Below are positions 836 to 51,457 of a DNA stretch of 64,000 bases, piece by piece (the first letter of the stretch is position 1; every line of letters begins with the position of its first letter). The DNA lies in contig CAZIVH010000002.1 of assembly GCA_964542965.1 (NCBI GenBank), positions 487 to 64,486 on the forward strand, written 5' to 3'. The translations under genes and the position numbers were made by a program. The notes below the pieces were generated by a model. It had not been told where the DNA came from. It searched no databases and saw nothing but the letters and a program-made list of their open reading frames with translations. Origin of the DNA: an uncultured Candidatus Peribacteria bacterium (lineage in GTDB: Bacteria; Patescibacteriota; Gracilibacteria; Absconditabacterales; Absconditicoccaceae).

Positions 836-926
836 ATGTTTGATGTTTTTTACGATACTATGATAATTACAAGAAAAGTCAATTGTATTTATTAAGGCAT
901 CATATCACCTATAGATATTCTTGCAT

Positions 927-954: not shown

Positions 955-961
955 TAGGTAT

Positions 962-1726
962 ATGTATTTTACCCTACTCTATATATTCATGGGAAAAACC
1001 AATGAACACACATACAATAGAATTTTGCATCCTGATCTCTCCATAAAAGAAGATCTCGATAAATTTTGCAATGACATGAAGGATCATATAGAGGCTACCT
1101 TATCATGGCAATGGAAAGAAAAAGCATGGAAGGAAGACGAAAGAAACACTTTTTTGGATTCTCTACCGGATACGCTCAAAGCCATAGAAGATCTCAAAGA
1201 AAAAAAACTCTCTCCTCTTGATATGAAATTTCTTAGGCTGATCGAAAGATATTATTTTGTAATATCCAACAAACCGAACTTGAAAACCAAAAACCATCCT
1301 GAGCATTATGCATCATACTTATCTATAGTAAGGGACGATATAGCAAAATTTTATCTTGAATGCGCGATACAAAACATTTACGATATAGCGCATAATCCTA
1401 TTGAAAAAATAGAATGATTGCCTGAGATAATCTCTATATGCAATTTTTTTGAGCAAAAATACAAAAATAAACAGTGAGATATCAACTGGAAAGCATACCA
1501 TGATGAGTATTTCAAAAACGAATGAATAAAGCTTTCACGTATGATTGATGATATCCTCAATAAATATCCTACCCAACAAAAGTTTTCCCCCAATATACCG
1601 CTTTTGTTCAAAATTTTTGACTTTCACAACAGATATAGTCTTGAGGTACTCTTTAGCATACTCACCTATCAGCTACACTATTCAAAAGATCAAGCTACCA
1701 AGCTTATAGAAAACCATATAGAATAA
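962..1726 (+). CDS. Hypothetical protein (254 aa after reading 3 TGA as Gly)
   Basis: Track ORFs 962-1417 and 1541-1726 share a frame. The gap contains only TGA (1415, 1475, 1523) and no TAA/TAG. The start could instead be ATG 989. Confidence 0.5.
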
Positions 1727-1734
1727 TCGATATG

Positions 1735-15686: not shown

Positions 15687-18600
15687 ATGATGAAATCACC
15701 ATTCCACCACATCAGACACGCACAGGAGCTCTTTGATCACTTCCATAGGAACGTGCATCATGCTTTTGTCATATTCGTGCTGGCAATGATAGGTATGTTG
15801 CGATGAGTCTCTCATATCCTTACCCCAACTTCGGCAAGCCGACAACGATGAGGATTTATCACAAGCGATTTCCGGGATCAAAATCCGACTAACGAAAACA
15901 TCACCTATGCTTTATTTGGCGATGGAACTCCAGGATCTACGGCTTATACAAGATTACGGGATTCTAGTTGTATCCCTACTAATGTGCAAATATTACCTTC
16001 GAACTTTTCATGATGAGTAGGGAATACCAATACTATATATATCCTCAATCCATGAACGTATACGATTACTACCTCTATTTCTTCAAATACTTGTTCAGCA
16101 TTGATTGGGAGAGGCGACGTATACTTAAGGCCTGCAAGTGGTAGTGTTGTTCCTGTGTCAATAGGACATTCTAATGTCATCATCGACAACATCAAAATCA
16201 ACGGAAACAATCAAACCTATACAGGTATGACTGTGGGTCATTTGCAGAACGTAACAATAAATAATATCGATATCTATCAAAGCTTATGACAAGGTTTGTA
16301 TACAAACAGTCAAATGGCTAATGTAGCATTACATAATTCTCGTATTTATAATAATACTAATTGAATTTTACTTCAAGCTAATTTATCATTAGGTCTTACT
16401 TCTAATCCTTCCTATATAACTATCAATAATTCACATATATACAACAATACTAATTGAATTCAGGCATACAATTATAAAGCAGAAAATATGAGCATCAACA
16501 ACAGTCAGATTTATAATAATGGTTACGGAATAATTTTTGGACATTATGTTTCTATGCCGTGTGTTGCTCTGACTACATCATATCCCACAACAAGAGATTA
16601 TAATAATAGCATCAATAATTCTGCTATCTATAACAATGGATATGGCATTTACACATACAATTGTTACGAGTTAGATGACTGATCTACCACAAGTTATACA
16701 TACACATATAATCTCAACAATACGTATATTTATAACAACACTTATTGAATCTGGGCATGAGTACCGCATATGCCTTACTATTGAACACTTAAGTTTTTTT
16801 CCAATAGTAACAATACGTGAGGAACAGCTATTTTAACACCATGAGCATGATCACCTATTCGAAGTGACTGAATACTAGATGACTCATCTGCTACTATAGA
16901 TTATGACTATGTAACCAATCCACAAAACGGTAGTTGATTACGATTGCTTAGTTGAAACCTACTATCACTAAGATGAGTAAGAGCATTTAATGCCGTATTG
17001 AAACCCATTAGATATATTTTTGGATTACATATCCCTAAACAAGGAACTCCCGTATGGTATAATAATAGCATACTGACAACATATGGCAGCAATCAATCTG
17101 ACTATTTCACAACAAGGTATATCGCAGAACCAGAATCCGCTTTATCTATTCCAGATCAATCTATAGTAAATCAATATTTTGGTTCTGGATCGATATACAC
17201 CCAAAATCGGTCAACCAATGGATGTTCACTCTCTGCATTCCAAGTAAAAACACTCAATCCATGAACATTCAATAATACGAACAATACCTTTGAAGATCAT
17301 ACCATATATATTCTCAGTGGCGGAGAGTATAAATCTGCTGCCACCTGAAATGCTTTTGTCTTCAATGGAAACTGCATAGCGTTGGTCGGTGCCGATGATA
17401 CAATATTCACCAAACTTGTAGCAACTAACATGTTGTATGCAAATAATAAGCGCAACATCATCCTTGATAATATCAAAATAGATTGAACTCACATAGTCGT
17501 TTGAAGCACTATGCTTCCCAACAACAGCGTCGTAACAGCAATCAAATTTGACGGGACTACCAATAACAATACCATCAACGATGTTCAAGCATACAATACC
17601 GCTGCATATGGAATCTATCTCGGACTTGGATCGCATCATAACACGCTGATGAACGTCCAAACATTCAATAACAATGAAGCAGGTATCCATCTCTATTATG
17701 CATCCAATTACAATGTCATAAACAATACTCAAAGCTACAATAATTGATCCTACGGAATACGGTTCGCTAACGGATCAAGCAGGAATACGATGAACAACTT
17801 CCAAACCTACAACAACGGAATCGGGCTTTTCTGAGACTTGACGACCCAAGAGAATATCCTCAATAGAGCTGTTATCTACAATAATAGCGATGCAGGGATC
17901 TATTTCAAAAACTCTTCCGGGAACATACTCAACGATGTAAGGATATACAACAATACCATAGGAATCAGAACACTCTATAGTTCTCCTGGAAACAAATATT
18001 ATGGAGAGCTCCAAATGTTTGCTAACGCAAACGGTAACTTTGAAGGCACCACAGGCAACGATATATCTTTTGCCCCATGAAGTTCAGCGCTTTTCTCTCT
18101 TCCAGGAACCTTGAATACCGGAGGGACTATGTCGTGTCTCTATGCGACCAACCCTACTCTTTCATGAACTACGCTCTTAAATAGTTCATGTTCAAACACC
18201 GGTCATAATATCGCTTGATTCATCTCTCCATATAATAGAAATGTAAATTACGCATTCGGATTACATATCTACAAACAAGCGCTACCAAAAAGATACGAAA
18301 CCGGAGGAGCATTGACGTCGATCCCATCACAATACGATGCCAACAAATATATCGCCGAAGTATTCGCTATCTGGGATGATGAGCCAGAAGGAGTATATTT
18401 TGATTCTACATGAGCTGCAGAGTTGAATACGCGATATAGCACGAATATCTATACTGCCGGAGTCTTGAATATTGCTATCCCTATCACCTTGACCCTTAGC
18501 CCATCAACCGCTACCGGATATCTTGTCATCAGCTGAACAAGCGTATGAACCACAGGGATGATAAGTAATGGAGATACTATACAAGTTAAGGTATTGAGCG

Positions 18601-20396
18601 CTACCGGATACAATAAAACAATTACCGGAACCTTGACGATCGGATCGATAGTAACATGATTTACCGTCACTACAAGAGGCATTAATCAGTTACCGACTAC
18701 GGGTTCGTTCGCATTCACCAATATGACAAGCATACCATTGAACACTATAACCGGTGGCTCTACTATAGTATCGGGCCTAGAAACCGGTGTCTACGCAGCC
18801 ATCAATTTCTTGCCAACCACAACAACAGGACGATTGGAAATCTACTCATGAGGTATCTTCATCAATTCATGAACAACAGGATTATTAGTCAATAACGGAA
18901 ATAGGATTCTTGCGCTCGCTCAGAGCAGTTCAGGATATGCTCAGACAGTCACAGGAAACGTTACGATATGACTAGGAGCATGATCATTCACGATTACGAC
19001 CAAATGATCGGACACCACTCCTCCTACCATACCTACCCTCACTTACCCTATGAGTTGAGAGGAAATGTTCTTTATTACCTTTGAATGGGCTGCTAGTACA
19101 GACACAGGAGCATGAATCGCATGATATGAATATCAAATAGCTGAAGACATGAACTTCCTCGATATCATCAACACTGGATTCATCGCTACAACTACGACAT
19201 GAACAGCATGATCGCCAAATACCTCATTCGACGAGACTTCATGACTCTACTACCGAAGGATCAGAGCAAAGGATAGGGATGATAACGTATCCAGCCGAAG
19301 CAACACCTGAATGTTTGAAGTCACTGCATTCGATTGACGGGAATTCGCTGAGCAAACAAACGCCAATCTAAGAACATATTATGAATCAGATGAAATCACC
19401 CTGGAAGGCATCAAAGCTGGCATTTCTGTATGGGCAAGCGTCGATAATGACGGAACCATCTACAAGAACGGAACCGACAGATGAACAGGCGTATACGTAC
19501 AGAATGACGATGAACTCTACCTCTCTGTCAGATCTAGCAATAATTATGATAGAACCATCTCTGCAACACTCAAAATAGCGAATAGGATATTGGATTTTGA
19601 CGTCACCACAAAAGATGAATCAGATGACGGATGTACGCTCACTTCAGACGATGAAGAGACCATACAGACAATCTTCGATAGTCTAGTCAACAACTATTCT
19701 TGAGACGAGGATAGATATGATGAATTCTTGACTACCATGCAGAGCATGTTGGAAGACGAGATAGATTTCACGAACGATTGCAATCTCGAATATCTTCAGA
19801 ATCTCATCGAAGAAGAGCTGGGGATCCCTACATGATGAAATACAGGATGATGAACTATTTCTACCTGATCACATATTGCGCCTAACTGCAAGGAATATGC
19901 AATTACCTACGACGCAGCTATCATGGGATACACATCTCCTAATCTCAGCATAACTACGTTCTTCGCTAACCGCGATTCGCTCACGAGATATATCGATAGC
20001 AAGAACCCTGGTGATTGTCATATCAATACCTACGGTGTCGCATCACGAGCATTCACCAACACTGATCCAAATAAGCATATTGCTCCAAACGGAAAGATCT
20101 ATTTCATCACCATGGAAGCCGGCAAATACACTTCAAGCAACTTTATCTACAGGAAATATTTCACTACACTCGCTGAATTGCGCACCTATATCGACAGGAA
20201 TAACATCACAAGCCAAGTCCGAAGTCATCAAGTAGATACGAGTTTCACTCCACAAACCTTCACTGCCCCTAATATGAAGGAATATAAGATCTACAAGACT
20301 GATAGATGATATATGTCATACAAGCTCATGAAAGTTCAGTACTTCTCTAGCTTGACGGACATCCAATCTTATATCAACAGGAATAATCCGAGATAA
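15687..20396 (+). CDS. Giant cell-surface protein B (1569 aa) with parallel beta-helix (PbH1-like) repeats and shared C-terminal module
   Basis: Track ORFs 16101-16289, 16488-16682, 16998-17264, 17511-17747, 17838-18080 and 19923-20309 share frame 0. All 79 sequence lines checked: about 53 TGA, no TAA/TAG. Repeats of the type NNSxIYNNxxxGI. N-terminal TM segment FVIFVLAMIGML. Confidence 0.8.
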
Positions 20397-29879: not shown

Positions 29880-30446
29880 TTATTTCTTATATTCCACGAA
29901 TCCGAGTTCTCTCGCTCTCAACACAACAGTCTTAAGCTTTTTCTGTGTGGATACTGGATTATTTGTATATGCCCTTGGTTTGATATCACCAAACCTTGTT
30001 ATATATTTTTTGAGCATCGCTACTGACTTTCGGTTAAGATATTTTTCATTTTTCTTGTCAGCGAAAAAAGCAACCTTTTGTCAAAGTTTCTTAGGATCCC
30101 GTGAGTCTATGATGGTTTTGAGTTCATCATTTACCTTTGCAAACTTCAAAAACTCTTCGTTCTTATCCATCTTGAAGATGTAATATCTCTTGATTGCCTT
30201 ATTATACAACAAATTCTTTTTGATTACATCCAAATCTTCGGCTTCTGCCTGAATATAATATGAATACACATATGCCTTGTCATTTCAAGACTTATTGCTC
30301 AAATTATACATTAGTTGCTGGAGTCCCATATCGTCCTGATCGACGATAGTTTTCTTGATGAGCTTTTCAAATTCAGAAACCGTTTCTTTGCGGTTAGTCT
30401 CTGATAAAGACGCATCAACCAACAACACTACATCATACTTTTGCAT
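29880..30446 (-). CDS. rpsF/rpsR: Fused 30S ribosomal proteins S6 (N-terminal) and S18 (C-terminal), 188 aa
   Basis: Hand translation: MQKYDVVLLVDASLSETNRKETVSEFEKLIKK...GLQQLMYNLSNKS-G-NDKAYVYSYYIQAEAEDLDVIKKNLLYNKAIKRYYIFKMD (S6-like). Then ...DPKKL-[TGA 30081-30083]-QKVAFFADKKNEKYLNRKSVAMLKKYITRFGDIKPRAYTNNPVSTQKKLKTVVLRARELGFVEYKK (S18-like). One frame; no ATG is available for a separate S18. Confidence 0.7.
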
Positions 30447-33141: not shown

Positions 33142-33765
33142 TTATTCAGCTGGTGTTTCTACCGGTGCTGCTTCTTCAGCCTTTGGCTCTTCTTTTGTTT
33201 CTTCTTTCACTTCTTCTTTTGGCTCCTCTACTTTTTCTTCCTTAACCTCAGCTACTTCACCATCTTTCTTCGCGATTTCACTAAGTGCAACAGCGAATGA
33301 TTGCAATGGATAGTTGAAGAGATAACAAAGCTTTGAGATCAATTCTTCTTTTGAAGGAACATTAGCAAGTTCATTAACATACTCTCCATCTTGCCGTTTC
33401 TTCTCGAACCGTCCTCCAATAAAAGATAATGCTGGTTTCTTATTCTCTTTCTTGAATTCCTTCAGATATTTGTTGATCACTTTGAGCGGAGCATATTCAT
33501 CGTTTTGCGCATACAACGCAAACACAGGCCCTTCCAAGGCATCGACACCGACTTCTTCAAGTCCTGCGTCTTTGAGTGCTCTCAGGAAGATTCTCTTCTT
33601 GATGATATTCATCTTTCCTTCAGCATTACTCAGCTCTATCCTCATCTTGTTCGCAAGCGTAACAGGAATAGCCGATTGTTTTACAATCACTGCATTCTTT
33701 GCATTTTCAAGATCAGTTACATATCATTTCAATAACTGTGTCTTCTTGTCTTTGGTGATAGCCAT
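33142..33765 (-). CDS. rplJ: 50S ribosomal protein L10 with acidic/Lys-rich C-terminal tail
   Basis: MAITKDKKTQLLK-[TGA]-YVTDLENAKNAVIVKQSAIPV... is in frame with track ORF 33142-33690. Confidence 0.8.
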
Positions 33766-33958
33766 TGTCCTACTATTATAAAGTATAAATTTTCTTGATG
33801 AAAACAAAAAGACCCATTTTCAAGGTCCATACAAAAAAGAATGTTTGTATCTGAACCTCGGTAGGAATTGGTATTTTATGCGTTTTAGCAACCTACTGTC
33901 TTTGGTGTTTCAGTGAGTGTTATAGAAAAATTGGGAGAGAATGCAAGAGAAAATTATC
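33766..33958 (-). promoter_or_regulatory. rplJ upstream region: putative promoter plus structured leader with a terminator-like hairpin
   Basis: On the minus strand: TTGCAT, 16 nt, TATAAC. Then hairpins AGTAGG...CCTAC and ATACAAAcattcttTTTGTAT, and GACCttgaaaatGGTC followed by TTTTTGTTTT. Could be an L10-leader-type attenuator, but unverified. Confidence 0.25.
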
Positions 33959-34756
33959 TTATTTCTTTCATATTTCAAGAAAATATCATATAAGTGCGCT
34001 CAATTCGTTATATAGATCAAGACATTGTCATTTGATCTTTATGTCTTGAATTTGATCTATTACTCTCTTTACCTGCAATGAATAGCTAAGAATAAACCAT
34101 TTTTGCTCTTCAAATCATGCATTGAATTTTTCCCAGATTGCCGGTCCATTTTCTTCCAATCATTTTATCATACCCCTCAAATTATGTATCCTATCAGATA
34201 AGGACAAAATCAAGGACTTACCTGATACCGTATCTAAATGCTTGATGTATGCAACCTTCCTCTCTTTTCGTGGTAATGATTTATCTTGCTCTGTAACATC
34301 ATCCACTAGCCCCAGAATATCTCCAGTATATTTTGATTCCAATAACATTCTTCAGCCTTCAACATCTTCTATCACATCATGCAACAATCAAGCTATTATT
34401 AACTTTTTATCATTTGTCACACGACTTATTATTTTTGCTACGGCGATTGGATGATCCGTATATGGAATATTTCCTATTTTTCTGTATTGATCTTTGTGAA
34501 ACTCCATTATATCCTTTAGTGCATTTTGAATATCTCCATCCTCTGAAACCATTTCAAAAGTCTTTTCCTCTAATTCTAGGTTTTTCTGAAAACTATCATA
34601 TGTATCTTTTATCTTCTCTGTACGATGTTTTTCGAATGCCTTTATTTGTTCTTCTGTAGGATCTCCATCATATCCTTGATCAAAATTATTCGCCATCGTC
34701 TCAAGTGTCTTTTTATCTTCTTTATTAGCGTCATATGTAGTCATGTCGTTTTTCAT
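33959..34756 (-). CDS. HD-domain protein, RelA/SpoT-type hydrolase only (small-alarmone-hydrolase/Mesh1-like)
   Basis: ...FHKDQYRKIGNIPYTDHPIAVAKIISRVTNDKKLIIA-G-LLHDVIEDVEG-G-RML...LVDDVTEQDKSLPRKERKVAYIKHLDTVSGKSLILSLSDRIHNLRGM, the classical HD_4 motifs. Every codon down to TAA 33959 was read by hand. ATG 34756 preferred over the track's TTG 34774. Confidence 0.75.
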
Positions 34757-34789
34757 TTTTACTATAGTAAACAATTAAAAATAGTATAT

Positions 34790-37700
34790 TTATTTATATT
34801 TTCAAAGCAAATCTTCTTTTTGCTGATCTGTTATATATCATTTTTGATAAGCCTCTTCTATGGATAATATAGACGCATCTCTATCAAATACATCATTTTT
34901 TATCTTATTATGTACATACTCGAAATCATATTGATATACATATAACGGTTGTCATTTTGAGGTAGCCATCTTATTTAATATCCCATCCCCTATCGACAGA
35001 TCTACATCTCATCATCAATAGAATTTCACGACATCGGGTCAATATTTATTATATAATTCAATTATTGTATTTCTAGCACCATTATGTCCCGATTCGAATA
35101 TTTCTAAAGGAACCGTTCTTCATAATCATTCTTCTCAATACTCACTAAGCATCCTGGTATTCTGACTAATCGTTCTTTTGAGCACTCCATTTATAAAACA
35201 TTCATTGAAATCTCTCATTACAAATTCAACCCTAACATTATATCAAAGTTCTTTTGCTTTTTCTATATTCTTATTTGCATTTTTATATGTTTTGAATGTT
35301 CAATCTAAAACAACTGCATATTCATTATTTGGAGATAGATCATCAATAGATGATTTACCACTTCATGCTCATCATGCCAAGAATTTCACTGTATTATTAT
35401 ATTTTCATTTATTCTGGATCAATAGATCTTCAAAATAAGTATCTGCTAAATATGACGCAGCTTCATGAGTTTTATTAGCATCTATTCAGACCTTTCATCC
35501 CACAAAATCTCTAAAATCATCAACATTCACTACATTACCCATTTTTTCTTTGTACTTTTCTATAATTTCTGCATAATTGTTTTTTGCATATTCTGTGATT
35601 TGTTCTGCTGTCATAGATTCAAAGAACACTTTTTCTTGCTTGAATTCCACTTTTATATCTATATCTTCATTTCAATCAATCCATGGATCTAATTCTGATG
35701 TATTATTCTCAGACACTGCATCCACAGTATTTTCTTCTATAGGAATATCCATTTCTTCAATTAGATTTGTTTCATTAGTAATATCACCAGTTCATTCATT
35801 ATCCTCTATTTCTCTATCAGATTCTGTCGATACATCCCCTTCCAACAAAACCATTTTAGCATATTCATACTCACTTTTAAGCGCCTCCAGTTGTGACAGC
35901 ACCTTTTCATCTCCTGTTCATTTGGCTATTTTATCTTTTTCTTCTTGTATTTTTTGATCAACTATCGTCATTCTTTCTTCTATCATCTGTGTAGGCGTCA
36001 GGTATCCATTAATCAATCACAGCCTAAAGAATATTCCTTTCTTATCCTTCGGATTTTGTATCATCTCTTGTTGTTTGATCTTCAGCTCTTCCAAGGCTAT
36101 GAGATTTTCCCTTTTCAGTGTCTCCATCTTCTGGAGCAATGTGGTTAATTGCCCTATTCTTGGATCGGTTTCTGCAATAGGGAGACGAGTATTTGCATCA
36201 ACGAATGATTGCGTATTTGAGTCAACTATAATATTGTTTTGCGACAAAAATATATTCATATCATTTAATGCATCTTGAGAATTCTTTGTAGTAAGCTCAA
36301 ATTTACCTACTTCCGTAGGCGACATATATGTCTTTATTTTACCTATACCAAGACTTCATCATTCCAAGAGTCATCCATACGCAACCGTATTGAAAAATAC
36401 CTGACAGAGATTATCGAAAGAAAAGTTTTGCTCTGTTGCATCTTTCATAGACAATAATGCATCCAAAAAATTTCATGACTCATATTGTTTATTTCATCAT
36501 GATGATGTTTCATTTCCTAATGCCGTCTGTCACACAATAGGTCATTCGCCTATTCCTGCAAAGGTATATACTCCCGTCTGTAAGATATTTAATGGGATAT
36601 CCACCAAAAAGGATTCTATGAATAGTTCTTCTATTCCGAAGACCATAACTTTTCATCATAATCATCACAATCCTCTTATTTTTTCCATAAAAGGAGCAAA
36701 CTTACTTCCTATTCAAAAGGTGGCAACCGTGGAAATATAATCGAATCACAGCCCTCATATAAAACTCGCTGTCCCTACTCGTTCATCCTTATCGTTGTAT
36801 GCTCATACACCCCTCATAAATCACACACCAAAAGGATCTACTTTATTGTTTGTGCCACTCATTTCTCATCATGCACTTTCATATAACCACTCCCCAGTAT
36901 TCCATACTTCTTGTCCTATACCATTTCACAATCTCAATCACACAGTGAATCCGGCTGAAGTAGCCCAAACATTCTTAGTAAAAATTCATGCAATAGCTGC
37001 TCACGCTATTCATCCGACCATACCCGTAAAGCTTCCAAATGCTCTCTGCCTATTATTATACAGATCATCTACAAACTGATCCCATTGATCTGAAAGATTT
37101 TCTCCAAAACTATTCCTTACAATATCATCCGGATTGGGTCATTGAGAAAAATCAAGGCTCACTTTTCATGACAAACTAGGTATCTTCCCTGTCGGTTTAG
37201 GGTTTCTCAATTGCAAAAGCTCTACATATCTCGTTTCCAATGCTATAGTCGCATCATATATCTTACCTGAATATTTATTTATTATCCTTTTATTATTTGA
37301 GTCAAATCAAGCTATAGCGCCATCTCATCACATCATCACACCATCTTCACCATGATAGAGATCAAAATTTTCTTTCAATTCTCTCTCCTTAGCATTCTCA
37401 AAGTCAGTTATCCTTTTATTTTGTTCTTCAAAATACTTATAAAAACCCATGATATCATTTATAGGTATCGATGCATCTATACCCAACTGCTTTCCTTGCT
37501 CATAAAACTTTGTGGTATATACATAGAGGTTATCTATATCTTGATTTCCTCTTCCTATAAATCTGTCGTATTTTGATTTTGCGTTAATATCTAACATAGT
37601 ATAGGATCATACTTCTTTTTCTGCTCATGACGTATTTCGTCGATTTTTTTCCGTTATTTTACCCGAAAGAATATATGGCTGAACTTTGGAAAAAATGTAT

Positions 37701-39130
37701 CCGCTATTCAATCGGCCAATAATCGTATCCTTATTAGCATTTGCAAACAATCATTTTTCACTCAAACCCTCTGCTGTCCATCATGCAAATATGTTTTCCA
37801 AAAAAACATTTATTTCTGTGCCACTCTTGCCATCTATATTATTCAACACATATAGTTTAAACGCATCCTTTCGTAAAGGATTTGAGAGATCAAGCGTTCA
37901 CGCCAATAATTTTTTTTCGGTTGCAGATCCTTTAGTCTGTAATTTTTCTACGCATCATATAACGCTTGTATAATATGCAATACTATTATCCATATTCACC
38001 AAATTCACTCATGTCATCAATCATGTATCCTTCAATTGTATCTCTCATGTAGATGATTTTTCCATTTTCAGCAACAAAGGAGATGTATATCACGGGAACA
38101 AGGTGATATATTGCAGTAATAACGACTTAAAATTGAGACATATATACGATTTATCGCTTTCTTTCACTGTTTCTGGCAGTGGTAGATACTCTCAGATATT
38201 GTCTACCTTTATTTTCGATATATCTTCTGAAGTCACTATATCAGTAAGTATTTTTATCCAATTAGGCTTTGTTTTCCCAGTAATTCAGAATTTTTCTAAA
38301 TTTTCTGTGAAATCTTGGATATTTATCTCCTTACTTATCTCATTATTAATCTTCATTCTTTCTTCCATGTCCTTTTTCTTCTCTGCAAGCTCCGTTTCAT
38401 ACACCGTTCTCTGTTCCGAAATGACCGAAATAATATCCATTTTATCTGATATGTTTGCGATATCTATATTCTTTTCCATCTGGATATCTCGTTCATCATC
38501 GATAATATTTATATACATGATTCCTGAATCAGACAATGTTATTGCTTCTCATTGTCTATTTTTGATATTGTTTGCCTCAAGAAAATCACAAAAAGCTCAT
38601 TGCCTTTTTTTATTCAAAAATTCCTGACAATTTGTTGCATTATCAATTATCGTATATGGTTCCTGTACAATCTCTCTATGCGTATCGAATATTTTTGTTG
38701 TAAACACAAGACTTTCTGTTGTTTCATCATATTCCAAAGATTCACCTGGCAATAATCCAACTCATTGTGTCTTATAGAGCTCTACCCTATCATAAATAAG
38801 TTCCTGTCATATTTTACCATCGATGATCATATCTTTATCGCCCTCCAATATCCTACACAACTGATATACCTTTATGGTATTTTCATCATATTTGGATATA
38901 TCAATCTCTTCATCAATAATATCGTGCATAATTCCTTTACTATCAAATGCATATTTTTTTTGTTCTTTTTTATCTATATTTTTTTCTAATGCTTTTATCA
39001 ATTTAGCTATCTGTCTCTCATCATTTTTCTTATCTTTTGTTATATCATCAAAATGTTTCTCTAACTCTTGCAGCGAGATCTCATTTTCATTTCATTCTGT
39101 TTTGGCGATTTTCTCTAAAATCTCTGCCAT
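34790..39130 (-). CDS. Giant protein (1446 aa, about 69 in-frame UGA) with Gly-zipper hydrophobic core, coiled-coil/acidic region and C-terminal zeta-toxin/AAA_33-like P-loop kinase
   Basis: All 73 sequence lines checked in the frame shared by track ORFs 36017-36325, 37328-37597, 38285-38536 and 38807-39001: no TAA/TAG between ATG 39130 and TAA 34790. Walker A VKFLA-G-G-A-G-SGKSSIDD (35351-35374) has three UGA glycines. Followed by AVVLD-G-TFK...GYNVRVEFVMRD...LGRTVPLEI. Central segment FGSFTGMVGGIAGAAIAGIFTKNVWATSAGFTVGLRLGNGIGQ. Confidence 0.8.
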
Positions 39131-39135
39131 GAAGC

Positions 39136-39420
39136 TTACATACTATCTAAAAGTTTATCCAGTTCTTCGTCCGTCATTTTCATTTCTTGATCTTCTTTTG
39201 ATTTGATCTTCTTGATTAGCTTAAGTCCCTTTTTGAACGTATCTTTTTCTTTCTCTGCTTTTACTGTCTCTATTGCCTCTTGCAATGCGCCTATCAGTTT
39301 ATCCATAATTTCATCCGTGATATATTTACTTTCTAGCAACGCCAAAAAACCATCCGCAAGATTCCGATGAGGCTTGAGTTTCGTGAGCACTTTGACGAGC
39401 AATTGTTTCTTTTTTTCCAT
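39136..39420 (-). CDS. Small helical protein (94 aa) translationally coupled to the giant gene
   Basis: Intact ORF MEKKKQLLVKVLTKLKPHRNLADGFLALLESKYITDEIMDKLIGALQEAIETVK...; its TAA lies 5 nt before the giant gene's ATG. Confidence 0.6.
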   Translation of the reverse strand: MEKKKQLLVKVLTKLKPHRNLADGFLALLESKYITDEIMDKLIGALQEAIETVKAEKEKDTFKKGLKLIKKIKSKEDQEMKMTDEELDKLLDSM

Positions 39421-39642
39421 AGTCAGGTAAATACATAAAATTTGCTATCATAAGTATATCCCAAACCACTTCTCAATATAAAAAAAACGTTCCAAAGAAC
39501 GCTTTTCTAGATGACATTTTCTATTTTTATGATATATTATTTATTGAGGAATATTTCATAAAAAACAACGAACATATCTCTTCTCTTGTATTTTTCATCA
39601 AAATCCATATACGAATAAGCGATTTTATCGTCTCTCAACGCT

Positions 39643-40548
39643 ATGATAGAGGCCAAGATGGCGAAAGATTTTTTGCGTACCGTATCATCGGAGTATCCAA
39701 ACTTCATGAGCCATTTTGATATTATCACTGCCGCTTGTGACTTTGCCGTCCACGCACACAAGGGACAGAAAAGAAAATATTCCGGTGAACCGTATCTTAT
39801 CCACCCCCTTAGCGTCGCTCTGCTCTGCGCCAAGAATTTCAATGATATCGATCTCTTTATTGCAGCTATTCTTCACGATTGCGTTGAAGACAACAATAAT
39901 ATCGAAATGAAACAAATCTACGAGACGTTTTGAGAAAAGATAGGCTTCATAGTAGATTCCGTCACCGACACCACTACCTATTTCTTGAATGCTCCACATA
40001 CGATATACAACGATAGGATAGAAAAAATCCTAGCATGAGGAATGCTCGACATCAGATGCATTCTTCTTAAGCTCTACGACAGGGAACACAACATCGATAC
40101 ACTCAGTGGCTTAGAACCACATAAACAGATCAGAATGAGTTTCGAAACGCAAGCGATCTATGAACCGCTCAAAAAGCTCTTCGGCGGATATCAAGACACG
40201 CCTCTAACCATCGAATCCTGTGAAAGTATTCTGTACCATTATCTTCGTGCCAATCGCATCACTACGCCGACATGACTCAAGGAAGCATTACTCAACCAAG
40301 CGTTTTTCGCTTTCGATAATGACACGTTTACCATCGTCTACAAGAACACTAACCGCATCTTCCGACAGATCGATAACAAGAAAGTTTTTGAGAAACTGGT
40401 GGAAAGCAAGAATTTCGACGAAAAGATAGAAGTTATCTCTATACAACAGGACAGCCAAGGAAAATTCCTCGCCGTTTTCAAATATAAAAGAGGGAATATT
40501 TTTGAAGATCTCGACAGCAAGTTCAGGATACATACCAACTTCTCATAA
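39643..40548 (+). CDS. RelA/SpoT-homologue hydrolase-only protein (HD domain plus ~130-aa C-terminal domain)
   Basis: ...FAVHAHKGQKRKYSGEPYLIHPLSVALLCAKNFNDIDLFIAAILHDCVEDNNN...FGEKIGFIVDSVTD...DIRCILLKLYDREHNIDTL; canonical SpoT hydrolase motifs, no synthetase domain. Track ORFs 39643-39933 and 40042-40275 joined through 3 TGA; gaps checked. Confidence 0.8.
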
Positions 40549-40589: not shown

Positions 40590-41549
40590 ATGAATAATCA
40601 GATCTACAATCTCATTTCCGATGCTACATTGAGCGACGAGCTTTCATTCTGTCTGAGGAATAGGACACTCGAACAGAAGTTTCTCTATCTCCAGAAAGGC
40701 GCAACAAAATATTACGATGTCGTCAATACCGATGCGGTCTATTATAGTGCATATCCGTATGAGCTTTTCGTAGATTTCGGGACAAAATATATTTTCTCCA
40801 AGACCAAAAAAATGGCTATCATCAGTCTCGGATGCGGGAATTCCGATATTGAATCCTACATATTCGAGCATCTAAACCACAAATATCACATCGATTACTA
40901 TGGCGTCGATTCGTCTAAGGATATGCTTGAGCTATCCATCCAAAGAATGAAAAGCATTACCAATATCGAAAAGAATTTTATCTGCGCCGATTTTTCAACC
41001 AATGAATTCAAGAGAGAATTGAGCCAACTAACCGCCAATGACGATATCAAGATCTTTACCTTCTTCAGTAATACGTTTGGGAACATAAATCCCAACAACA
41101 TCATAGATATTCTCTACAATCTTTTGAAATCGGGAGAAAAGATACGGCTTGATATCCGTTTGAGATCAGGAAAATCAACAAAAGAGAATCTGAAGGATTT
41201 TGAAAAATACTACAGCTATCTCTCCAACGAGGAGATGACCAATCTTTTCCTTGGACCCATCGAAAGCATGAACATCGATAAGGACTCAGGCGAATTTGCA
41301 CTCAAGACAACGAATATCGAGCCATTGGAAGCGATCAACTATCAATACAGTTTTGTTTTCAACAAGAAAGTCAGCGTTACCATCAAAAACGAAACAACGA
41401 CAATACTTCCTGGTGAAGAGCTTCAGATCGTAAATATCTGCACCTACGATCCTGATGGACTCATCAATTTCTTTGAAGGGCATAATTTCAAACTTATCCA
41501 AAAGTTCATCAAAGACTCCAGAGGACAATTTCTTTTTGAAAAAATTTAG
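40590..41549 (+). CDS. SAM-dependent methyltransferase, EgtD-like (histidine-N-alpha-methyltransferase family fold)
   Basis: Intact 319-aa ORF: ...YYDVVNTDAVYYSAYPYELF...IISLGCGNSDIES...YYGVDSSKDML...FFSNTFGNINP...; no TGA codon. Confidence 0.55.
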   Translation: MNNQIYNLISDATLSDELSFCLRNRTLEQKFLYLQKGATKYYDVVNTDAVYYSAYPYELFVDFGTKYIFSKTKKMAIISLGCGNSDIESYIFEHLNHKYHIDYYGVDSSKDMLELSIQRMKSITNIEKNFICADFSTNEFKRELSQLTANDDIKIFTFFSNTFGNINPNNIIDILYNLLKSGEKIRLDIRLRSGKSTKENLKDFEKYYSYLSNEEMTNLFLGPIESMNIDKDSGEFALKTTNIEPLEAINYQYSFVFNKKVSVTIKNETTTILPGEELQIVNICTYDPDGLINFFEGHNFKLIQKFIKDSRGQFLFEKI

Positions 41550-44678: not shown

Positions 44679-46202
44679 TTATTTTACCGTATACATCTTT
44701 TTCTCTCCCAACAATTCCTTCGCCAATCTAATTTTACTTTCATCATTTGCATACATCGTATAGATTACTTCACCTTTTTTGACTGTATCGCCAAGTTTCT
44801 TATGAAGATATAATCCTGCCTGGAGATCCAATGGAGATCCCAATGTCCTTGCCGTAAGATTAACGACTTTCATATCGATATCCTTCACTTTCCCATTCTT
44901 CTCTGCATGAATATCATGCTGTATATCTGCCAATTCCAGTCCTTCAGATTTTACGTTAGGATTGCCATGCTGTGCTTTGATGATTTTTTGCATCATTGTT
45001 CGCGCCTTTCCTGAAACCAATTGCCCATATGCTAATTTCTCCGCCTCTTTGCCTTTTGCCTTGCCTACCATCTCTATGATTTTTGCACACAGATGTATAG
45101 CTTTTTTTTCTAGATCCATAGGTCTATCAGGATGCTGTTGCAACACCCTCAACACTTCTCTCACCTGCAAAACCGCTCCGATACCCGCACCAATAGGTTG
45201 CAATGCATCGGTAATCTCTACGGTCATTTTCATGCCGAGTTTCTTACCCACATATTCGTATTTTTGCTTAAGCCGTTTTGCGGTTTTCATATCAGGCACC
45301 TTGGCGCTTGGACCAACAGGGATATCGATCAATGAATGGTTGATGCCCATCGCATATTTTTTTGCCATGATGCTCACAATAGTCCTAGAGTAGGATTGCA
45401 TAGACAGCGGATATGCTACTTTGATGAGTTTTTCATCTGCAGGAGCGAGGTCCAATCCTCCACCCCAAACCAAACAGCAATTATTTTTCTTCACTAGCGC
45501 TTCGATCTCTTTTTTACTGAACGATATATCCATAAGCACACTTACGCATTCACCGGTAGCAGCCGGCGTCGTAATAGCTTTGGAAAATGTCTTTGGCATC
45601 TTGATGCCCAATGAGGTAAGCAACGGGATCATGATCATTGTTGTCTCATTCCCCGGCACTCCTCACATGCAATGTTTATCCGCTACTATACCTGGGAAAT
45701 GAAGCATTTCCCCCGTCTCAGCCATCGCTTTTGCCATCCGATAGAGATCCTCATCTTTGGAAGGATAAAAGAATCCCATCGCAGAGAAATACGTCGTCAA
45801 GATATCAGTGAATCTATTGTTTGAGATATCTTGCATGATTGCTTTAATCTCCTTTTGATTGAGTCTTTTGCCTGTCAATCATTTCTTGAGCGCGTCCAAC
45901 GATTCAGGCGTATTCTTGGTATATGATACTGTTACGAGTTGTCCTGGCTTGATTTCGTATTTTTCTTGGATATCCCTAAAAATACCTATTTCTCAGCGTT
46001 GCACGATTTTGGAGGTAAGATTGGCATCAAAGACAAATTCCTTGTCATCATAAATCAGCGCTACCTTGTCCATACTCGTGATGCCATGTTCCCAAGCATC
46101 TTGTTCATTGACAAGGACAACTAGATCCTCTCCTTCATGGATATCGATAATCCTTGTCCTCGCAGCAAATAAATCTTTTTTTGTCTTTTTTGTTTTGTTC
46201 AT
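44679..46202 (-). CDS. deoA: AMP phosphorylase (archaeal-type thymidine-phosphorylase family with N-terminal extension)
   Basis: Track ORFs 44679-45659, 45663-45878 and 45993-46202 share a frame; gaps checked. 507 aa with ...DKHCM-G-GVPGNETTMI... and ...CCLVWGGGLDLAPADEKLI... Confidence 0.8.
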
Positions 46203-46528: not shown

Positions 46529-47953
46529 TTATTTCTTTCTCTTTTCAAAGAATTCAATCGCCTGAGCTAATTCTTCGTGATCCTTTGCATATTCATGGAT
46601 ATCAATCCCTTTCTGATATGCCTCGCAAGCTTGCACTAGTGCTGTCGCTCCTTTTCTGGTTCCACCCGGATGCGCATGACATCCCGCTCCCATCGTCGTA
46701 ATAAAATCAACATTTCCCATCACATCGATAAATGGTTTGAGCAAAGTAGGATTGAGCCCTCCGGAAATAATCGGCGCACATTTCTTAATCCCTCTCCATG
46801 AGTCATCTTGCAATACTGCATGATGCGCTATATCTTTTTGGATATCTTGTACGAAATTCTCATCGGCTTCAGGGATTGTTCCCCATGATTGATGAAACAT
46901 ATGTCCATCAGCTACGAGATTCAAGATATTATGTGCAGCGGTCACATCCTCTTCAGGCGATCCTGCCATTTTCCCCACACCAGCAGTACCGGTATGGATA
47001 CCTGATGTTCCTGCCAACCTTGCAAATTTAGACAGCACCAATACCGTATATCCGATAGGATTTTCCGGTCTTGTGAAAGCACCATGTCCTGCTCTATGAA
47101 AATGGATGAAAACATCAGGATATTTTCTTCTCAAGGTTTGCACTGCCATCCATCCTGCTGTTGTTCCATCGATAAGGAACGCATATGAACCCTTTTCCAT
47201 GCCGGAGTTGACGATCATTTCACATCTCTTGATCATAGTATCGTAATCAGCTGCAGAGACATTGAACGAGTGAACTTTTTTTTGGCCGGTCTCTTTGACT
47301 GCCTTATCCATAGCTTCTTTGACATTCTTCACCATCTTGTCGTACGGACAAAAATCCTGGTCAGCCTGCGGTTCATCGTTTTTGACAAAATCGCCGCCGC
47401 CTACTCGGAAATCATAGGCTACTTCAGCATATTCCGCTGAGGTAAGTCCCATCTTTGGCTTCACGATAGTTCCCAAGATAGGTCTATCGTAAACATTGAG
47501 ATATTTTCTCATATCGTCCAAGGTATAGCTTGGACCATCGTATTGTTCAAGCATAGCAGGCGGGAATCGTACATCCAGCAGTTTCAATGCTTTTATCTCT
47601 TTCATCCCGAAAATATTTCACGCGATATAGGTCATGATATTCTGTACATTCCCTCACCTATCCCGAAGTCTCCGAGGATACGCGATCCACACAATATTTT
47701 TCTCCATATCCACTTTGTATACGAGAGAATTCATCTCACGTGCAAAAGGCGTTTCCGTCTTGACGGCAAAATTCGTCCCTGTGGAAGATTCTGCAGATAC
47801 TTCACATGCTGCCTGGAGAATATTGAGATTCCCGCCTGGTAATAAGTGAAATGCACAAAGCATATATTCACCATTCTCTGGATCCTTGAGATCTAAGTTT
47901 ACATAGGCTAACTGATGTTCATTGAGCGTAGGTAAGAGTTCTTTAATGTCCAT
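46529..47953 (-). CDS. rbcL: RuBisCO large subunit, form II/III type (474 aa)
   Basis: Track ORFs 46529-47605 and 47654-47953 joined through 2 TGA: ...RDR-G-GNVQNIMTYIA-[TGA 47618-47620]-NIFGMKE... Form-II-like active-site block GGGDFVKNDEPQ. ...HFHRAGHGAF..., ...ISGGLNP... Confidence 0.9.
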
Positions 47954-48023: not shown

Positions 48024-50354
48024 CTAGGTGATAGCATCTTCTTGGAAAGCGTTTTCTACATCTGGCAACGCTTCACTCTTATCTATAAATTCATTGAATG
48101 CTAATTGCATATCCGTCCTTTCTAGATAAGATTGGTCTGTACTTATCTCCTGCGTCAATTGATAGCTGAATTTCTCTAATGTCATAGGTTCGATTATAGG
48201 ACGCGCATAGGAATTGTTTTTGAATATAGAGAAGAACCTTGCGTAGGTCTGTAGATATCCATAAGGTTGATCAGCATTCTTCTCTTGAGCAACAATGGTT
48301 TTGTCCATATTTTCCTGAGCATCTTTTGTCATCATAGTTATATTCTCCGTATGCTTATGATCAGTCTGTCCCAACAATCATAGTGCATATCTAGCATCGT
48401 TCGTTCATGCTTTGGACAGGTTGATCATATAGTTTTTTTTCTTCTGTCCCATATCCTGGATACTTTTCCTAAAAGACTCAAGCTGGGCTATCCCATATTC
48501 TCTGAGACTAGCATCTATCAAACTCAGCATTGCGTATACCTCTGCATTGTTTGCCGAAGAAAACGTCTGATTTGGCATCGCTTCAATATCCTGTTCCATG
48601 AAAGTGAATATTTCCTGTACTGCCATATCCTTCATGATATTCCTTTTGAATCGCATTTTTTCCGTCTCCATATTGAAATTTCATGATTTTTTGACAGTTT
48701 CATTCAATGCGCTTGCGACATTTTCTTTGTATTCCTCTACATCATCAGCATTTTCCACTAATTCTTTGTAATCAAGCGATTTCGCACCTATAATGAAATC
48801 ATCGAATGCTGGCAATTGTATGTCAGGGATTTCCATTTTCCCGTTTTTAGGATCTTTGATAAAGAACGGTCCGTTGATTTTTTCTCTTTTCATGAATACT
48901 TCCTGTTCGAGCTTCCCTGTCGTTAAGTTGTAATATAGTTTCAAATTTTTCCCATTCATTTTTCCATCGATATTCAGGATAATATCCTCGCCTTTTTTTT
49001 CAACAAGATCGTTTTCTTCTGATTTTGCACGTCTAAATTGTTCTAATACATTTTCTTCTGTAGATAGATCTATATCCATATACGTTTTCAAAACATCCAA
49101 ACAACTGGTCACCGCTTGTTCTTCAACCGTCTTTTTCGTTTCTTTCATCAAATCATCTTCCGCTCATGATTTTTTGTTCTTTATCTCCATAAGTTTCTGC
49201 AATTTTTCTTTTTCTTTGTCTGTCGGATTCTTGATCTTCATCAATTCCTGTATCTGAGGATCTTCTTGTATAGATGCATCCAATGTCGGATAGAGTTTTC
49301 TCATGCTTTCGTAATATGCAAGGTCTTTTTTTTCATCGCTAACGAGTTGCATGTCCATATATTTATCGAAATACGATTGTACATCCTTATGCTGGACGAC
49401 TTCATTCTTCACTTCATCCATAGGAGATGCCGTCACTTTCTCTGTATACTCCACTACCATGTTTTTCACTTTTTCATAGAGTTCTCACCATGTCTCTTTC
49501 AAAAATTCACCCAACCCGACCGATTCATTATACTCATAATATCTTTTGACCAATGCATCATATTTTTGCTGTTCTTCCTTGGTCATTTTCTCTCTCAAAC
49601 CATTCTTTTCGATAAGTAGCATATCCTGTTCAAGTCCCATAGCCTTATAGATATCCTCTCTATTCCCATATGTTTTATTCAACGCGTTTTTTTCTTCCTG
49701 GGATTTTTTTTCATACGCTATTTGCATATTTTCATTTGTAGACCGCGCTATATTAGGATAATTAGCTTTTATCGTTTCGAAATCTTTAGCAAATTTTTCT
49801 AGCTGGATTCCGTTAGCGATCTGTTCCATTGTCGGATACGCATTCACATTATTCGATGAATTGCTGACTATATTTTTCCCTTTTTCTGCTTGCTGTATAA
49901 TATAAAATCTCAGCCCATCATCTGATACATCATTCAATTTTTTCTTATCCCCATCTTCCAATCCGTTCATATATGACGAAAACGTTTCGTATTTTGCACC
50001 AGGACCCACAAGCTCTTTTATGATTGCCTGTTTGTTTGAGCTAAAACCACTCAATGCTTTGTCCTGTAATCATCAGAGATCAATTTTTTCACCTTTTTCT
50101 ATTTTTGCGGCAACCAATTCACGCATAGCTATATTGTATTTTATATGCGTGTTTTTATCTGTTCAGTTTTTATATGCGTTCAATGCTTTATTGTATTCCT
50201 CTTTTGAGCATACTCCCAATGCTTGCGCTACATATGGCGCGACTTTTTTTCGATCATATCACATATCAGAGATCATCGTATACAATGTTTTCCCTTTTAT
50301 TTTCCCTGTTTCTATATTTCATTTATCGCTATTTTGCCCTTCTGTTCGTTCCAT
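48024..50354 (-). CDS. Large hypothetical protein (776 aa) embedded in the AMP-salvage cluster
   Basis: Track ORFs 48024-48377, 48405-48671, 48681-49151, 49164-49469 and 49485-50054 share one frame. All junctions are TGA. Frame followed upstream to ATG 50354, just after an in-frame TAA. TAG stop at 48024. Lys/Glu-rich, no motif recognised. Confidence 0.65.
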
Positions 50355-50376: not shown

Positions 50377-51318
50377 TTATTTTATCATTCGAGGATAATG
50401 CTTTTTTACTTCTTTTTTTATATCTTTGGGTTTAATGACACCATATTCGGTGATAATTCCGGTAATGAATTTTGCAGGAACGATATCAAATGCGTAGTTC
50501 ACGATTTCTAGTTCTTTCGGAGCATCTGGTCGGAGTTCCTTGCCAGACCTTTGTTCTATCTTGATAGTATTTTCGGCATCTACCTTGAGCAATGATCATG
50601 CGATGTACACAGGAATTTTGGAATGCCAAGCTGCTAATGCTATAGCGAAACTGCCGATTTTATTGAATACATCACCATAAAGAGAAATAGCATCCGATCC
50701 TATGATGACCATATCGATATCCACATCTGATGCGTAGAGATTGTCAACGAAAAACGGTGCAGCCCCATCAACGATCATCGTATTGGGCACTTTTGCTTTG
50801 AGCAGATCCAATGAGGTCTTTCTTCCCTGATACAAAGGCCTTGTCTCCGTATTGTATACATAGATATTTTTCTTTTCTTTGTTATGCGCTTGTACAAGGA
50901 TTTTAATCACCGATCCACTGTGGCAGTGTGTCATGATATTCATGCGTTTCTTGATAAGCTTTGCTCCAATCAATGGCCTTAACGCCTCTTCTGTCTCTAT
51001 ATCTTGAATATAGGATTTACAAGCTTTGTATAATTTTTCTTGGATAGTCTTGATGTCGCTCTTGTTTTTGAGCAATGCCTTGTATTCGAAGAGACAATCC
51101 TTGATTCCATTGAACAACATCGGCTCGGTATCCCTAGATGTTTTGAGCAACACTATGGCCTGTTTGAAAAACGTATCGAATTCCTTGAGATCTTTGAACT
51201 TTTGTCTTTTGATCTCTTTGGCAAGGATATCTATCCCTGCTTTGGCGATATTCGTCGCTCACTGGATCTTGATACTCTTGATATCTTCAGCAACCGCCTT
51301 GATAGGAGTGAGATTCAT
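50377..51318 (-). CDS. e2b2: Ribose-1,5-bisphosphate isomerase (eIF-2B alpha/beta/delta-like)
   Basis: MNLTPIKAVAEDIKSIKIQ-[TGA 51259-51261]-ATNIAKAGIDILA... (the RGA..IA motif), ...MTHCHSGSV..., ...VIIGSDAISLYGDVFNKIGSF... Track ORFs 50377-50592 and 50596-51153 joined. Confidence 0.8.
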
Positions 51319-51320
51319 CA

Positions 51321-51457
51321 TTAGAAATAAATTAAGAATTAAAAATTAATAATGAATAATGTCGGTATTGTTTTATTATCGCCTATTGTAATATACGATA
51401 CTCCATTTCAGCGAATCTTTCATTTTTCATTGTTCATTATTCATCGTTCATTAAAAG
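51321..51457 (+). repeat. Intergenic core + heptad-arm element, copy 4 (core 51361-51417); fills the whole spacer
   Basis: Arm ...TTAAGAA/TTAAAAA/TTAATAA/TGAATAA. Core GTCGGTATTGTTTTATTATCGCCTATTGTAATATACGATACTCC (hairpin TATTGTA ata TACGATA with a G.U pair). Arm TTCATTT/TTCATTG/TTCATTA/TTCATCG/TTCATTA. Confidence 0.65.

Follow-up and report, generated by a model that had tools for sequence, protein, structure and literature searches.

A candidate effector operon pairing a zeta-toxin-type kinase with a RelH/Mesh1-type hydrolase in bacteria that read UGA as glycine

Small alarmone hydrolase (SAH) antitoxins reportedly neutralise toxSAS modules, a result said to go back to Jimmy et al. in 2020. 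The same action is described in a later report (Kurata et al. 2021, bioRxiv 10.1101/2021.04.30.441581). The zeta toxin ng_zeta1 of Neisseria gonorrhoeae has two sequence blocks swapped relative to the classical zeta toxins, and its catalytic Asp56 therefore precedes the P-loop Lys115; Lys59 and Asn75 contact UDP-N-acetylmuramic acid (UDP-MurNAc), Arg175 and Arg181 bind phosphates, and the enzyme phosphorylates UDP-sugars at the C4'-OH and is lethal (Rocker et al. 2018, PMC5923241). Zeta-like kinases are also noted in polyvalent proteins, proposed to be injected with DNA and to weaken the cell wall, according to Iyer et al. 2017 (PMC5512222), and zeta-kinase is listed among the effector domains of polymorphic toxin systems (PMC12419801). 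Zeta-kinase domains in polyvalent or polymorphic effectors are already known, as are SAH antidotes. The subject of this work is an operon of three genes in a 64,000-nucleotide (nt) stretch, here called the window, of contig CAZIVH010000002.1 (assembly GCA_964542965.1, positions 487 to 64,486, forward strand), deposited under an uncultured Candidatus Peribacteria bacterium. The operon comprises a small gene, a giant gene ending in a predicted ng_zeta1-type kinase and an HD gene for a predicted RelH/Mesh1-type hydrolase. The bacteria that read UGA as glycine and carry this trio belong to candidate phyla, probably of the Absconditabacteria/Gracilibacteria type; the window contains a single tRNA gene and no rRNA gene. 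The preferred reading, given a rough probability of 0.5, is a lineage-specific and chromosomally fixed effector operon in which the giant would poison UDP-sugar metabolism and the HD protein would serve in self-protection.

The three genes lie co-directionally on the minus strand (Table 1) and are open only under translation table 25; with UGA read as stop the longest open reading frame (ORF) of the window has 650 amino acids (aa). Under table 25 the layout proposed in a first-pass annotation of this DNA was recovered, with gaps of 5 nt between the small and giant genes and 33 nt between the giant and HD genes, and with an uninterrupted giant frame. UGA stands for glycine and not for tryptophan because the invariant Walker A glycines of the giant are themselves TGA-coded (TGA TGA GCA TGA), and in P0001, a public translation of this gene with code 4, the place reads LAWWAWSGKSS. 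The mechanical ORF of the HD gene begins at a TTG (34774), ahead of the ATG at 34756. On the 5' side of the small gene there is a divergent intergenic region of 222 nt holding the best promoter-like match, which is only a candidate promoter because such matches are no more numerous in the region than in shuffled sequence. The module sits upstream of rplJ, as had been said, with a ribosomal protein L10 leader in between, and since this leader separates the HD gene from rplJ the operon ends after the HD gene. The L10 leader is itself an element found here in a UGA=Gly candidate-phyla genome.

The C-terminus of the giant is predicted to be an active kinase that falls in the ng_zeta1 branch among zeta toxins. 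Pfam Zeta_toxin (PF06414) was identified at residues ~1269-1369 with 45.5 bits when the C-terminal fragment was scanned and 38.7 bits for the whole protein (cutoff 22.3), aligned only over model positions 94-184, the second half, because the N-terminal half of the domain is rewired. A profile built from four family members and searched against PDB sequences recovered ng_zeta1 (6eph) over ~200 residues with E=7e-17; the E-values of classical zeta and AvrRxo1 were 0.08 and 0.16. The key residues are D1204, R1207, K1259, D1276, R1306, R1319 and R1338. Asp56, Lys115, Arg175 and Arg181 of ng_zeta1 align to D1204 (within VNVDDFRDF, N-terminal to the P-loop), K1259 (within the Walker A P-loop GGAGSGKSS, invariant in all giants), R1319 (within VLKRT) and R1338 (within LGRTVP), and these four are invariant across the kinase domains of the giants. 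Lys59 aligns to R1207, a conservative change that is invariant in the UGA=Gly clade; the equivalent of Asn75, a residue of UDP-MurNAc preference, is ambiguous, with a 6-residue deletion at that place in this clade. The kinase motifs quoted in the first-pass annotation (VKFLAGGAGSGKSS, VVLDGTF, GYNVRVEFV and LGRTVP) were all located in the giant, and its zeta-toxin-family assignment stands with the ng_zeta1-like character added by profile and structure match. Its AAA_33 assignment was rejected, as Pfam gave no AAA_33 match in the giant. No epsilon-like protein was recognisable beside the kinase, and a comparison of the 94-aa protein with the PDB chains, ng_epsilon1 included, gave no similarity.

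The protein encoded downstream is a RelH/Mesh1-type small alarmone hydrolase as predicted from its motifs and fold, in agreement with the SpoT-type HD hydrolase first proposed. Pfam HD_4 (PF13328) was identified with 48.6 bits (cutoff 27.2) and the hydrolase part of NCBIfam spoT_relA with E=6e-20. The H...HD..ED...D..N motifs are kept (HP at 102, LLHDVIEDV at 124-132, SDRIHNLR at 187-194); they show little or no variation across 41 homologues and are kept in six of the seven aligned partners. The AlphaFold2 model, made on the same protein with W at the TGA codons (P0005) and an alignment of 41 sequences, has a mean pLDDT of 88.8 and a pTM of 0.81, and its closest Foldseek match is RelH of Corynebacterium glutamicum (7qoc, E=4.5e-9, TM-score 0.83), followed by the Leptospira SAH and Mesh1. 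The Mesh1 matches include complexes with NADPH and with 3'-phosphoadenosine-5'-phosphosulfate (PAPS), both ligands that carry a ribose phosphomonoester. In front of the hydrolase core is a helical hairpin (helices 10-29 and 35-68, pLDDT up to 94) which is conserved in the seven aligned HD partners and absent from RelH, Mesh1 and the HD proteins of Peribacteria.

A second HD_4 gene, unmentioned in the first-pass annotation, lies divergently just upstream of the operon, and a Methyltransf_33 (EgtD-like) gene comes after it. The pair holds the same place in L001 and L028. Two SAH-like genes are found within 6 kb of window sequence, whose scanned proteins showed no synthetase domain of the RelA/SpoT type anywhere in the window. 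In L024 the pair is replaced by a helix-turn-helix plus SocA_Panacea (antitoxin-domain) gene (1-660), ~1.7 kb upstream of the trio.

The trio was identified in seven lineages, counted by distinct giants: that of the window and six further UGA=Gly lineages. The giants have 1446 aa in the window, 1289 in L028, 2454 in L024, 1644 in L018, 2002-2034 in the L015 type and 1066 in L029; the one of L026 is seen only to the contig end, and the L026/27 HD gene follows its cut kinase end. The order small-giant-HD was found in the window, L015/16/17/30/31, L018-20, L024/25, L028 and L029, with a giant-HD spacer of 31-36 nt, and the small gene precedes the giant wherever the contigs of the HD hits extend far enough. 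A search with the HD protein returned 13 full-length hairpin-bearing clusters, of which five were looked up and all five have a giant directly upstream. The L029 locus (small protein of 90 aa, giant of 1066, HD protein of 264) was reached from a kinase match, independently of the HD query. Across lineages the kinase is 50-82% identical, the HD protein ~70% and the small protein ~50%. The flanks are rplJ in the window, L024 and L028; fusA/argS and holA in L015; and hrcA/enolase and AbiEii in L018. Because the flanks differ among lineages (at least three contexts), the link of kinase and HD gene is not mere inherited gene order. In every relative examined the HD gene keeps its synteny with the giant, and a functional coupling of some kind between the ng_zeta1-type kinase and the RelH-type hydrolase is very probable. 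The first-pass annotation had named three outcomes that would count against it; none of the three was observed, the giant frame being continuous, the HD gene syntenic in relatives and the kinase domain zeta-toxin-like.

A DNA pattern free of G (DDFR[DE]F-35 aa-NNT[VI]KFLA) identified two further L015-type contigs in metagenomes and had no match in viral contigs. One candidate, L002, taken as the cassette on a different N-terminus, was rejected, being a fragment of an L015-type giant with a TGA-to-TAA difference and not an independent case.

The common part of all giants is formed only by the last ~285 residues, 50-82% identical, and the bodies (780-2170 aa) are unalignable between lineages. 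Between the window and L024/L028 the identities are 90% for RpoB, 94% for RplL and 72% for RplJ, and 78-82% for the kinase domain, 68-70% for the HD protein and 47-51% for the small protein, whereas the bodies of 1000-2170 residues align no better than shuffled sequence. This replacement of bodies between close species is, as far as sequence comparison goes, an arms-race signature. The N-terminal body of the window's giant had been described as without recognisable motif or signal peptide, and no match was found for it in Pfam, NCBIfam, PHROG, PADLOC or the PDB sequences, nor by tblastn against 50,697 phage and 72,556 plasmid records; the kinase is the sole recognisable domain of this giant. 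The Gly-zipper-like hydrophobic block of the first-pass annotation is real as to composition, with hydropathy peaks at 699-717, 790-808, 828-846 and 911-929, of which only the first attains a transmembrane-like value of 1.5, the other three being moderate. It is a possible membrane-insertion module, and a comparable Gly/Ala-rich hydrophobic stretch occurs in every other giant. The acidic linker was found where it had been placed, in front of the kinase; residues ~1020-1165 are common to the L026 giant and ~1106-1165 to the L024 giant.

Other elements are shared as a mosaic. A region of ~550 aa is common to the L018 and L028 giants and absent from the window's giant. The L018 giant presents an ART-PolyVal-like region beside the kinase (27.4 bits, below the cutoff of 31.2) and the L024 giant an HEMHH motif, seen by eye. 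A module of ~80 aa ending in (L/M)E.G(I/F)CG (GICG/GFCG) was identified in four related giants and is absent from the window's; it stands directly before the kinase in L018 and ~50-420 residues upstream of it in the other three, gave no match to a Pfam family at E<=0.01 and could serve in processing or as a pre-toxin element.

The small protein has homologues of 37-51% identity at the same position in L018, L024, L028 and L029, with the conserved N-terminal pattern KKQLLxKxLxKLxPxRxLAxGxLAL, and in L015 an unrelated protein of 123 aa occupies the position. No Pfam, PHROG, PADLOC or PDB match was found for it. It is a candidate chaperone, adaptor or binding partner. Because it is conserved while the body is swapped, a role for the body is less likely than one for the constant kinase or for an export step that is constant too.

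The relatives of the kinase outside this clade are mostly large. An exhaustive search with the kinase profile gave 3373 clusters, of which 775 reach E<=1e-30, and the best 150 of the 3373 are mostly proteins of 700-5980 aa with the kinase domain internal. Among ten large relatives scanned by Pfam, P0077 and P0078 come from within the UGA=Gly clade; five of the other eight carry LPD22, LPD38, ART-PolyVal, ddrB-ParB or RadC, one carries DnaJ only and two the kinase only. The UGA=Gly giants look like chromosomally fixed relatives of the polyvalent class because of this kinship of the kinase and because of the ART-PolyVal-like region of L018. In Peribacteria, the same HD subfamily is fused to a Pfam Zeta_toxin kinase (P0018 and P0023), and P0018 lies within a defence island. 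In Candidatus Peribacteria MFXW01000005.1 (L021, 8001-9350) the fusion has 449 aa, with an N-terminal RelH-like HD_4 and a C-terminal Zeta_toxin-family kinase; it stands among restriction-modification, PDDEXK, DUF4238 and DUF4062 genes and may act in defence as toxin and antidote in a single chain. In sister proteins the same HD domain is joined to a zinc-ribbon-like tail or to repeats of the Sel1 type.

Table 1. Coordinates of the trio, its parts and other features (window positions, unless giant residues are stated).
Feature	Position	Strand	Remarks
Trio	33959-39420	-	three genes
Small gene	39136-39420	-	94 aa, ATG start, 0 TGA
Giant gene	34790-39130	-	1446 aa, 4341 nt incl. stop, 68 in-frame TGA, 0 TAA/TAG
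Lineage-variable N-terminal body	37046..39130	-	giant residues 1-695, no recognisable domain
Gly-rich hydrophobic block	36251..37045	-	giant residues 696-960, 17.7% Gly, 13 GxxxG
Charged helical stretch and acidic linker	35636..36250	-	giant residues 961-1165, linker 32% D+E
Predicted ng_zeta1-type zeta-toxin kinase domain	34790..35635	-	giant residues 1166-1446 and stop
HD gene	33959-34756	-	265 aa from ATG at 34756, stop at 33959, 7 TGA
Family-specific helical hairpin	34502..34756	-	HD protein residues 1-85, conserved TLxTMxxNFxxGYDxDP motif
Predicted RelH/Mesh1-type small alarmone hydrolase core	33959..34501	-	HD protein residues 86-265 and stop; Pfam, fold
Candidate operon promoter	39447..39476	-	sigma-70-like TTGAGA-18-TATGAT, best match upstream of small gene
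Ribosomal protein L10 leader	33796-33923	-	Rfam RF00557, 49.8 bits (gathering 44), full-length match, outside module
rplJ	33142-33765		downstream of HD gene
Second HD_4 gene	39643-40548	+	301 aa, 80 bits, ~120-aa C-terminal extension
Methyltransf_33 gene	40590-41549	+	EgtD-like
GICG/GFCG module, L015, L018, L028	L015g 1263-1335, L018g 1290-1362, L028g 880-956		giant residues
GICG/GFCG module, L024	L024g 1676-1750		giant residues; weak second copy 1910-1955
S6-S18 ORF	29880-30446	-	188 aa, Ribosomal_S6 (3-92), Ribosomal_S18 (138-183)
PYNP-type (AMP) phosphorylase	44679-46202	-	
RuBisCO large subunit	46529-47953	-	298 bits
Protein of unknown function	48024-50354		776 aa
IF-2B-family isomerase	50377-51321	-	
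Large protein, first of pair	12898-15648	+	916 aa
Large protein, second of pair	15687-20396	+	1569 aa, right-handed beta-helix/NosD repeats

Toxin and antidote appears to be the best reading of the pair of kinase and HD protein. It is the most economical one because the only characterised member of the kinase clade kills, because SAH-fold antidotes exist and because the Peribacteria fusion recalls single-chain zeta systems. The giant would consist of a body that is exchanged rapidly and has a Gly-rich hydrophobic module at its centre, and of an invariant C-terminal kinase, the bodies of relatives appearing to carry polyvalent modules as well, such as the ART-PolyVal-like domain. By analogy with ng_zeta1 the kinase would transfer phosphate from ATP to a hydroxyl group on some nucleotide-activated metabolite, most likely UDP-MurNAc or UDP-N-acetylglucosamine (UDP-GlcNAc), and the dead-end product would starve cell-wall synthesis in a recipient cell, presumably a host or prey bacterium. 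The co-transcribed HD phosphohydrolase would protect the producer by hydrolysis of the product, by docking of its hairpin on the kinase or by both, with the small helical protein as a conserved accessory. Three features favour delivery to another cell: bodies that are replaced between species, a block that looks membrane-active and a relatedness to polyvalent proteins of the injected kind. The bolder form of this reading is a weapon with which UGA=Gly candidate-phyla episymbionts or predators attack their hosts, in which a body for delivery and host recognition, swapped between sister species, would carry a fixed kinase warhead against nucleotide-sugar pools, a RelH/Mesh1 fold would give immunity by removing the phosphate, as the first HD antidote of a P-loop-kinase toxin, and the many TGA codons, those of the Walker A loop among them, would guard the gene; taken as a whole it is possible but doubtful. 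The usage of TGA for glycine would leave the toxin gene untranslatable in bacteria of the standard code.

Several points weigh against an exported toxin with an enzymatic antidote. The first-pass annotation had proposed a contact-dependent effector, for which no support was found: the giant has no signal peptide, no secretion-system gene was identified in or near the operon, and no secretion or trafficking domain was identified by Pfam or NCBIfam in the window's giant or in four related giants scanned. Because of this, intracellular defence or a toxin-antitoxin (TA) role remains a serious rival. The comparison with classical polymorphic toxins, also proposed at first, fails on the direction of variation, which is here reversed, toxin and partner being constant and the body variable. 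None of nine loci from other phyla with the same kinase clade has an HD_4 neighbour, in a contig scan based on a P-loop peptide pattern, the P-loop being TGA-coded in the UGA=Gly lineage. The fusion kinase of Peribacteria has the classical topology and not the rewired one of ng_zeta1, so the fusion backs the link at family level and not the exact pair. The structural model of the kinase was that of a relative 32% identical (P0003), with a low overall mean pLDDT of 54.8 and ~70-88 in the core; its best structural matches are 6epg, 6epi and 6eph (E~1e-9), with AvrRxo1 and PezT/zeta at ~1e-3. In the HD partner of L028 a Tyr replaces the first metal-binding His, which hints that hydrolysis is perhaps non-essential. 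Finally, the known substrates of the SAH/Mesh1 fold present the scissile phosphate on the ribose 2' or 3' and the product of ng_zeta1 carries it on the hexose C4', so that enzymatic reversal by the HD protein is chemically unproven; the conserved hairpin may instead bind the kinase.

The alternative that survives best is an intracellular TA or abortive-infection system, in which the body would sense phages or other invaders, the kinase would poison the wall precursors of its own cell and the HD protein, perhaps with the small protein, would restrain it. Defence sensors typically join a hypervariable region to an effector domain that stays constant, and the giants present a hypervariable body on a constant effector. 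The lack of secretion signals agrees with such a role, as does the peptidoglycan-binding-domain protein encoded in the window, since it suggests that the organism has a cell wall and so may itself contain the target. The zeta toxins, ng_zeta1 included (PMC5923241), are classical toxins of TA systems, and the Peribacteria fusion in its defence island recalls the single-chain zeta system of Escherichia coli, which is cited in PMC5923241. However, PADLOC gave no match for the giant body or the small protein. The bodies hold effector-like or membrane-active-looking modules (ART-PolyVal-like, HEMHH, Gly-zipper) and no known sensor folds, and the nearest kinase relatives sit in injected polyvalent proteins. 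The locus lies among core genes at a site syntenic in three species, outside any defence island; its annotated neighbours are ribosomal and metabolic genes, the HD_4 gene, the methyltransferase and the peptidoglycan-binding protein. On balance this alternative is unlikely.

A housekeeping cycle of kinase and phosphatase on a nucleotide or nucleotide-sugar, in the envelope biogenesis or signalling of these reduced genomes, would need no toxin, and the giant would be a membrane scaffold or surface protein. The trio is found in every lineage examined beside core genes, both enzymes retain their catalytic residues, kinase-phosphohydrolase fusions exist and a second HD_4 paralogue adjoins the operon; the related Vampirococcus is also reported to have many giant membrane proteins thought to serve in host attachment (PMC8080830). 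Against it, the only characterised member of the kinase clade is a lethal toxin and the others occur in conflict-type polyvalent proteins, and the non-homologous replacement of bodies at 90% RpoB identity is unexpected for a scaffold. The composition is atypical too, G+C at third codon positions (GC3) being 0.20 in the kinase domain, 0.29 in the giant body and 0.28 in the HD gene as compared with 0.41 in rpoB. With these points a housekeeping role seems quite unlikely.

The same atypical GC3 would fit a domesticated remnant of a polyvalent protein from a conjugative element or prophage. TGA makes up 69% of the Gly codons in the kinase domain, 48% in the body and 41% in the HD gene, as compared with 19% in the other window genes, and because of this share of 41-69% the module is no recent import and has evolved for long within the UGA=Gly lineage. 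A remnant is improbable, since the hallmarks it has on its side, the kinase clade and the ART-PolyVal module, are met by the absence of phage or plasmid similarity, of a pattern match in viral contigs and of mobile-element genes in the operon flanks, and by this long residence; equally improbable is an HD protein acting as co-effector that strips (p)ppGpp or (p)ppApp so that the target keeps growing and stays sensitive, for although RelH-type SAHs hydrolyse alarmones, judged by the names of the best structural matches, and zeta toxin expression is reported to promote (p)ppGpp synthesis and to induce dormancy (PMC6356619), the HD protein has no export signal.

If the preferred reading of an effector operon with self-protection is true, it would represent a new toxin-antidote chemistry, with a zeta-type P-loop kinase countered by a phosphatase of the alarmone-hydrolase fold, a fold so far known as antidote against RelA/SpoT-type toxins only. 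The substrate range of the Mesh1/SAH fold would become wider, the replaced bodies could mark host specificity, and a zeta-kinase module of mobile-element polyvalent proteins would have been fixed in a cellular lineage of altered code. The operon would also be a testable candidate for the damage of hosts by episymbionts of the Absconditabacteria/Gracilibacteria type, so far poorly understood.

Three further groups of genes were observed in the window (Table 1). The first is an ORF of 188 aa with Ribosomal_S6 and Ribosomal_S18 domains that resembles an rpsF-rpsR fusion; the same two-domain gene of 188 aa is called in L024. The second comprises genes for a PYNP-type phosphorylase, a RuBisCO large subunit and an IF-2B-family isomerase, which look like the AMP-salvage RuBisCO pathway typical of candidate-phyla bacteria, with a protein of unknown function of 776 aa among them. 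The third is formed by two adjacent proteins of 916 and 1569 aa, probably surface proteins, that share by eye a C-terminal module of ~200 aa (HIAPN.KEY...YFSSL...NNPR).

The closest described system on the kinase side is ng_epsilon1/ng_zeta1 of Neisseria gonorrhoeae (6eph, PMC5923241), which is the best match in sequence and structure and shares the Asp-before-P-loop topology, the Lys and both Arg. It comprises a stand-alone toxin of 401 aa with a C-terminal oligonucleotide/oligosaccharide-binding (OB) domain, carried on a plasmid, and a small protein antitoxin encoded upstream; here the kinase ends a chromosomal protein of 1066-2454 aa, and its conserved partner, an HD hydrolase, comes from the gene on the downstream side. 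The two-gene layout of epsilon/zeta (PezAT) does not apply to this locus, where the toxin domain forms the C-terminal end of a protein of 1446 aa and the 94-aa gene has no Pfam family. Polymorphic toxin systems (Zhang et al. 2012) share the large protein, the C-terminal toxin-family domain after a flexible linker, the small gene upstream and a candidate protective gene downstream.

Polyvalent proteins (Iyer et al. 2017, PMC5512222) hold the closest outside relatives of the kinase and show an extreme mosaicism of orthologues, which that paper describes for Helicobacter. The giants differ from them in the lack of mobile-element context, in the kinase being always C-terminal and constant, and in the dedicated HD hydrolase and small helical gene, neither of which is mentioned in the passages of that paper covered here. 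The closest precedent for the putative action of the HD protein is toxSAS, where a RelA/SpoT-type HD hydrolase also adjoins a nucleotide-modifying toxin; that toxin is a pyrophosphokinase of RelA/SpoT fold, whereas here a P-loop zeta-type kinase would add one phosphate, and the HD protein carries an extra hairpin of 85 aa that sets it apart from toxSAS antitoxins. In a limited library, no report was found of a zeta-kinase/HD pairing, of the UGA=Gly trio, of the hairpin-HD subfamily or of the reversed polarity of variation. RelH and Mesh1 (7qoc, 5vxa, 9chy) resemble the HD core in fold and in catalytic motifs and are housekeeping enzymes of ~180 aa, whereas the HD protein of this operon has a hairpin at its N-terminus and is obligately linked in the genome to a kinase of zeta type.

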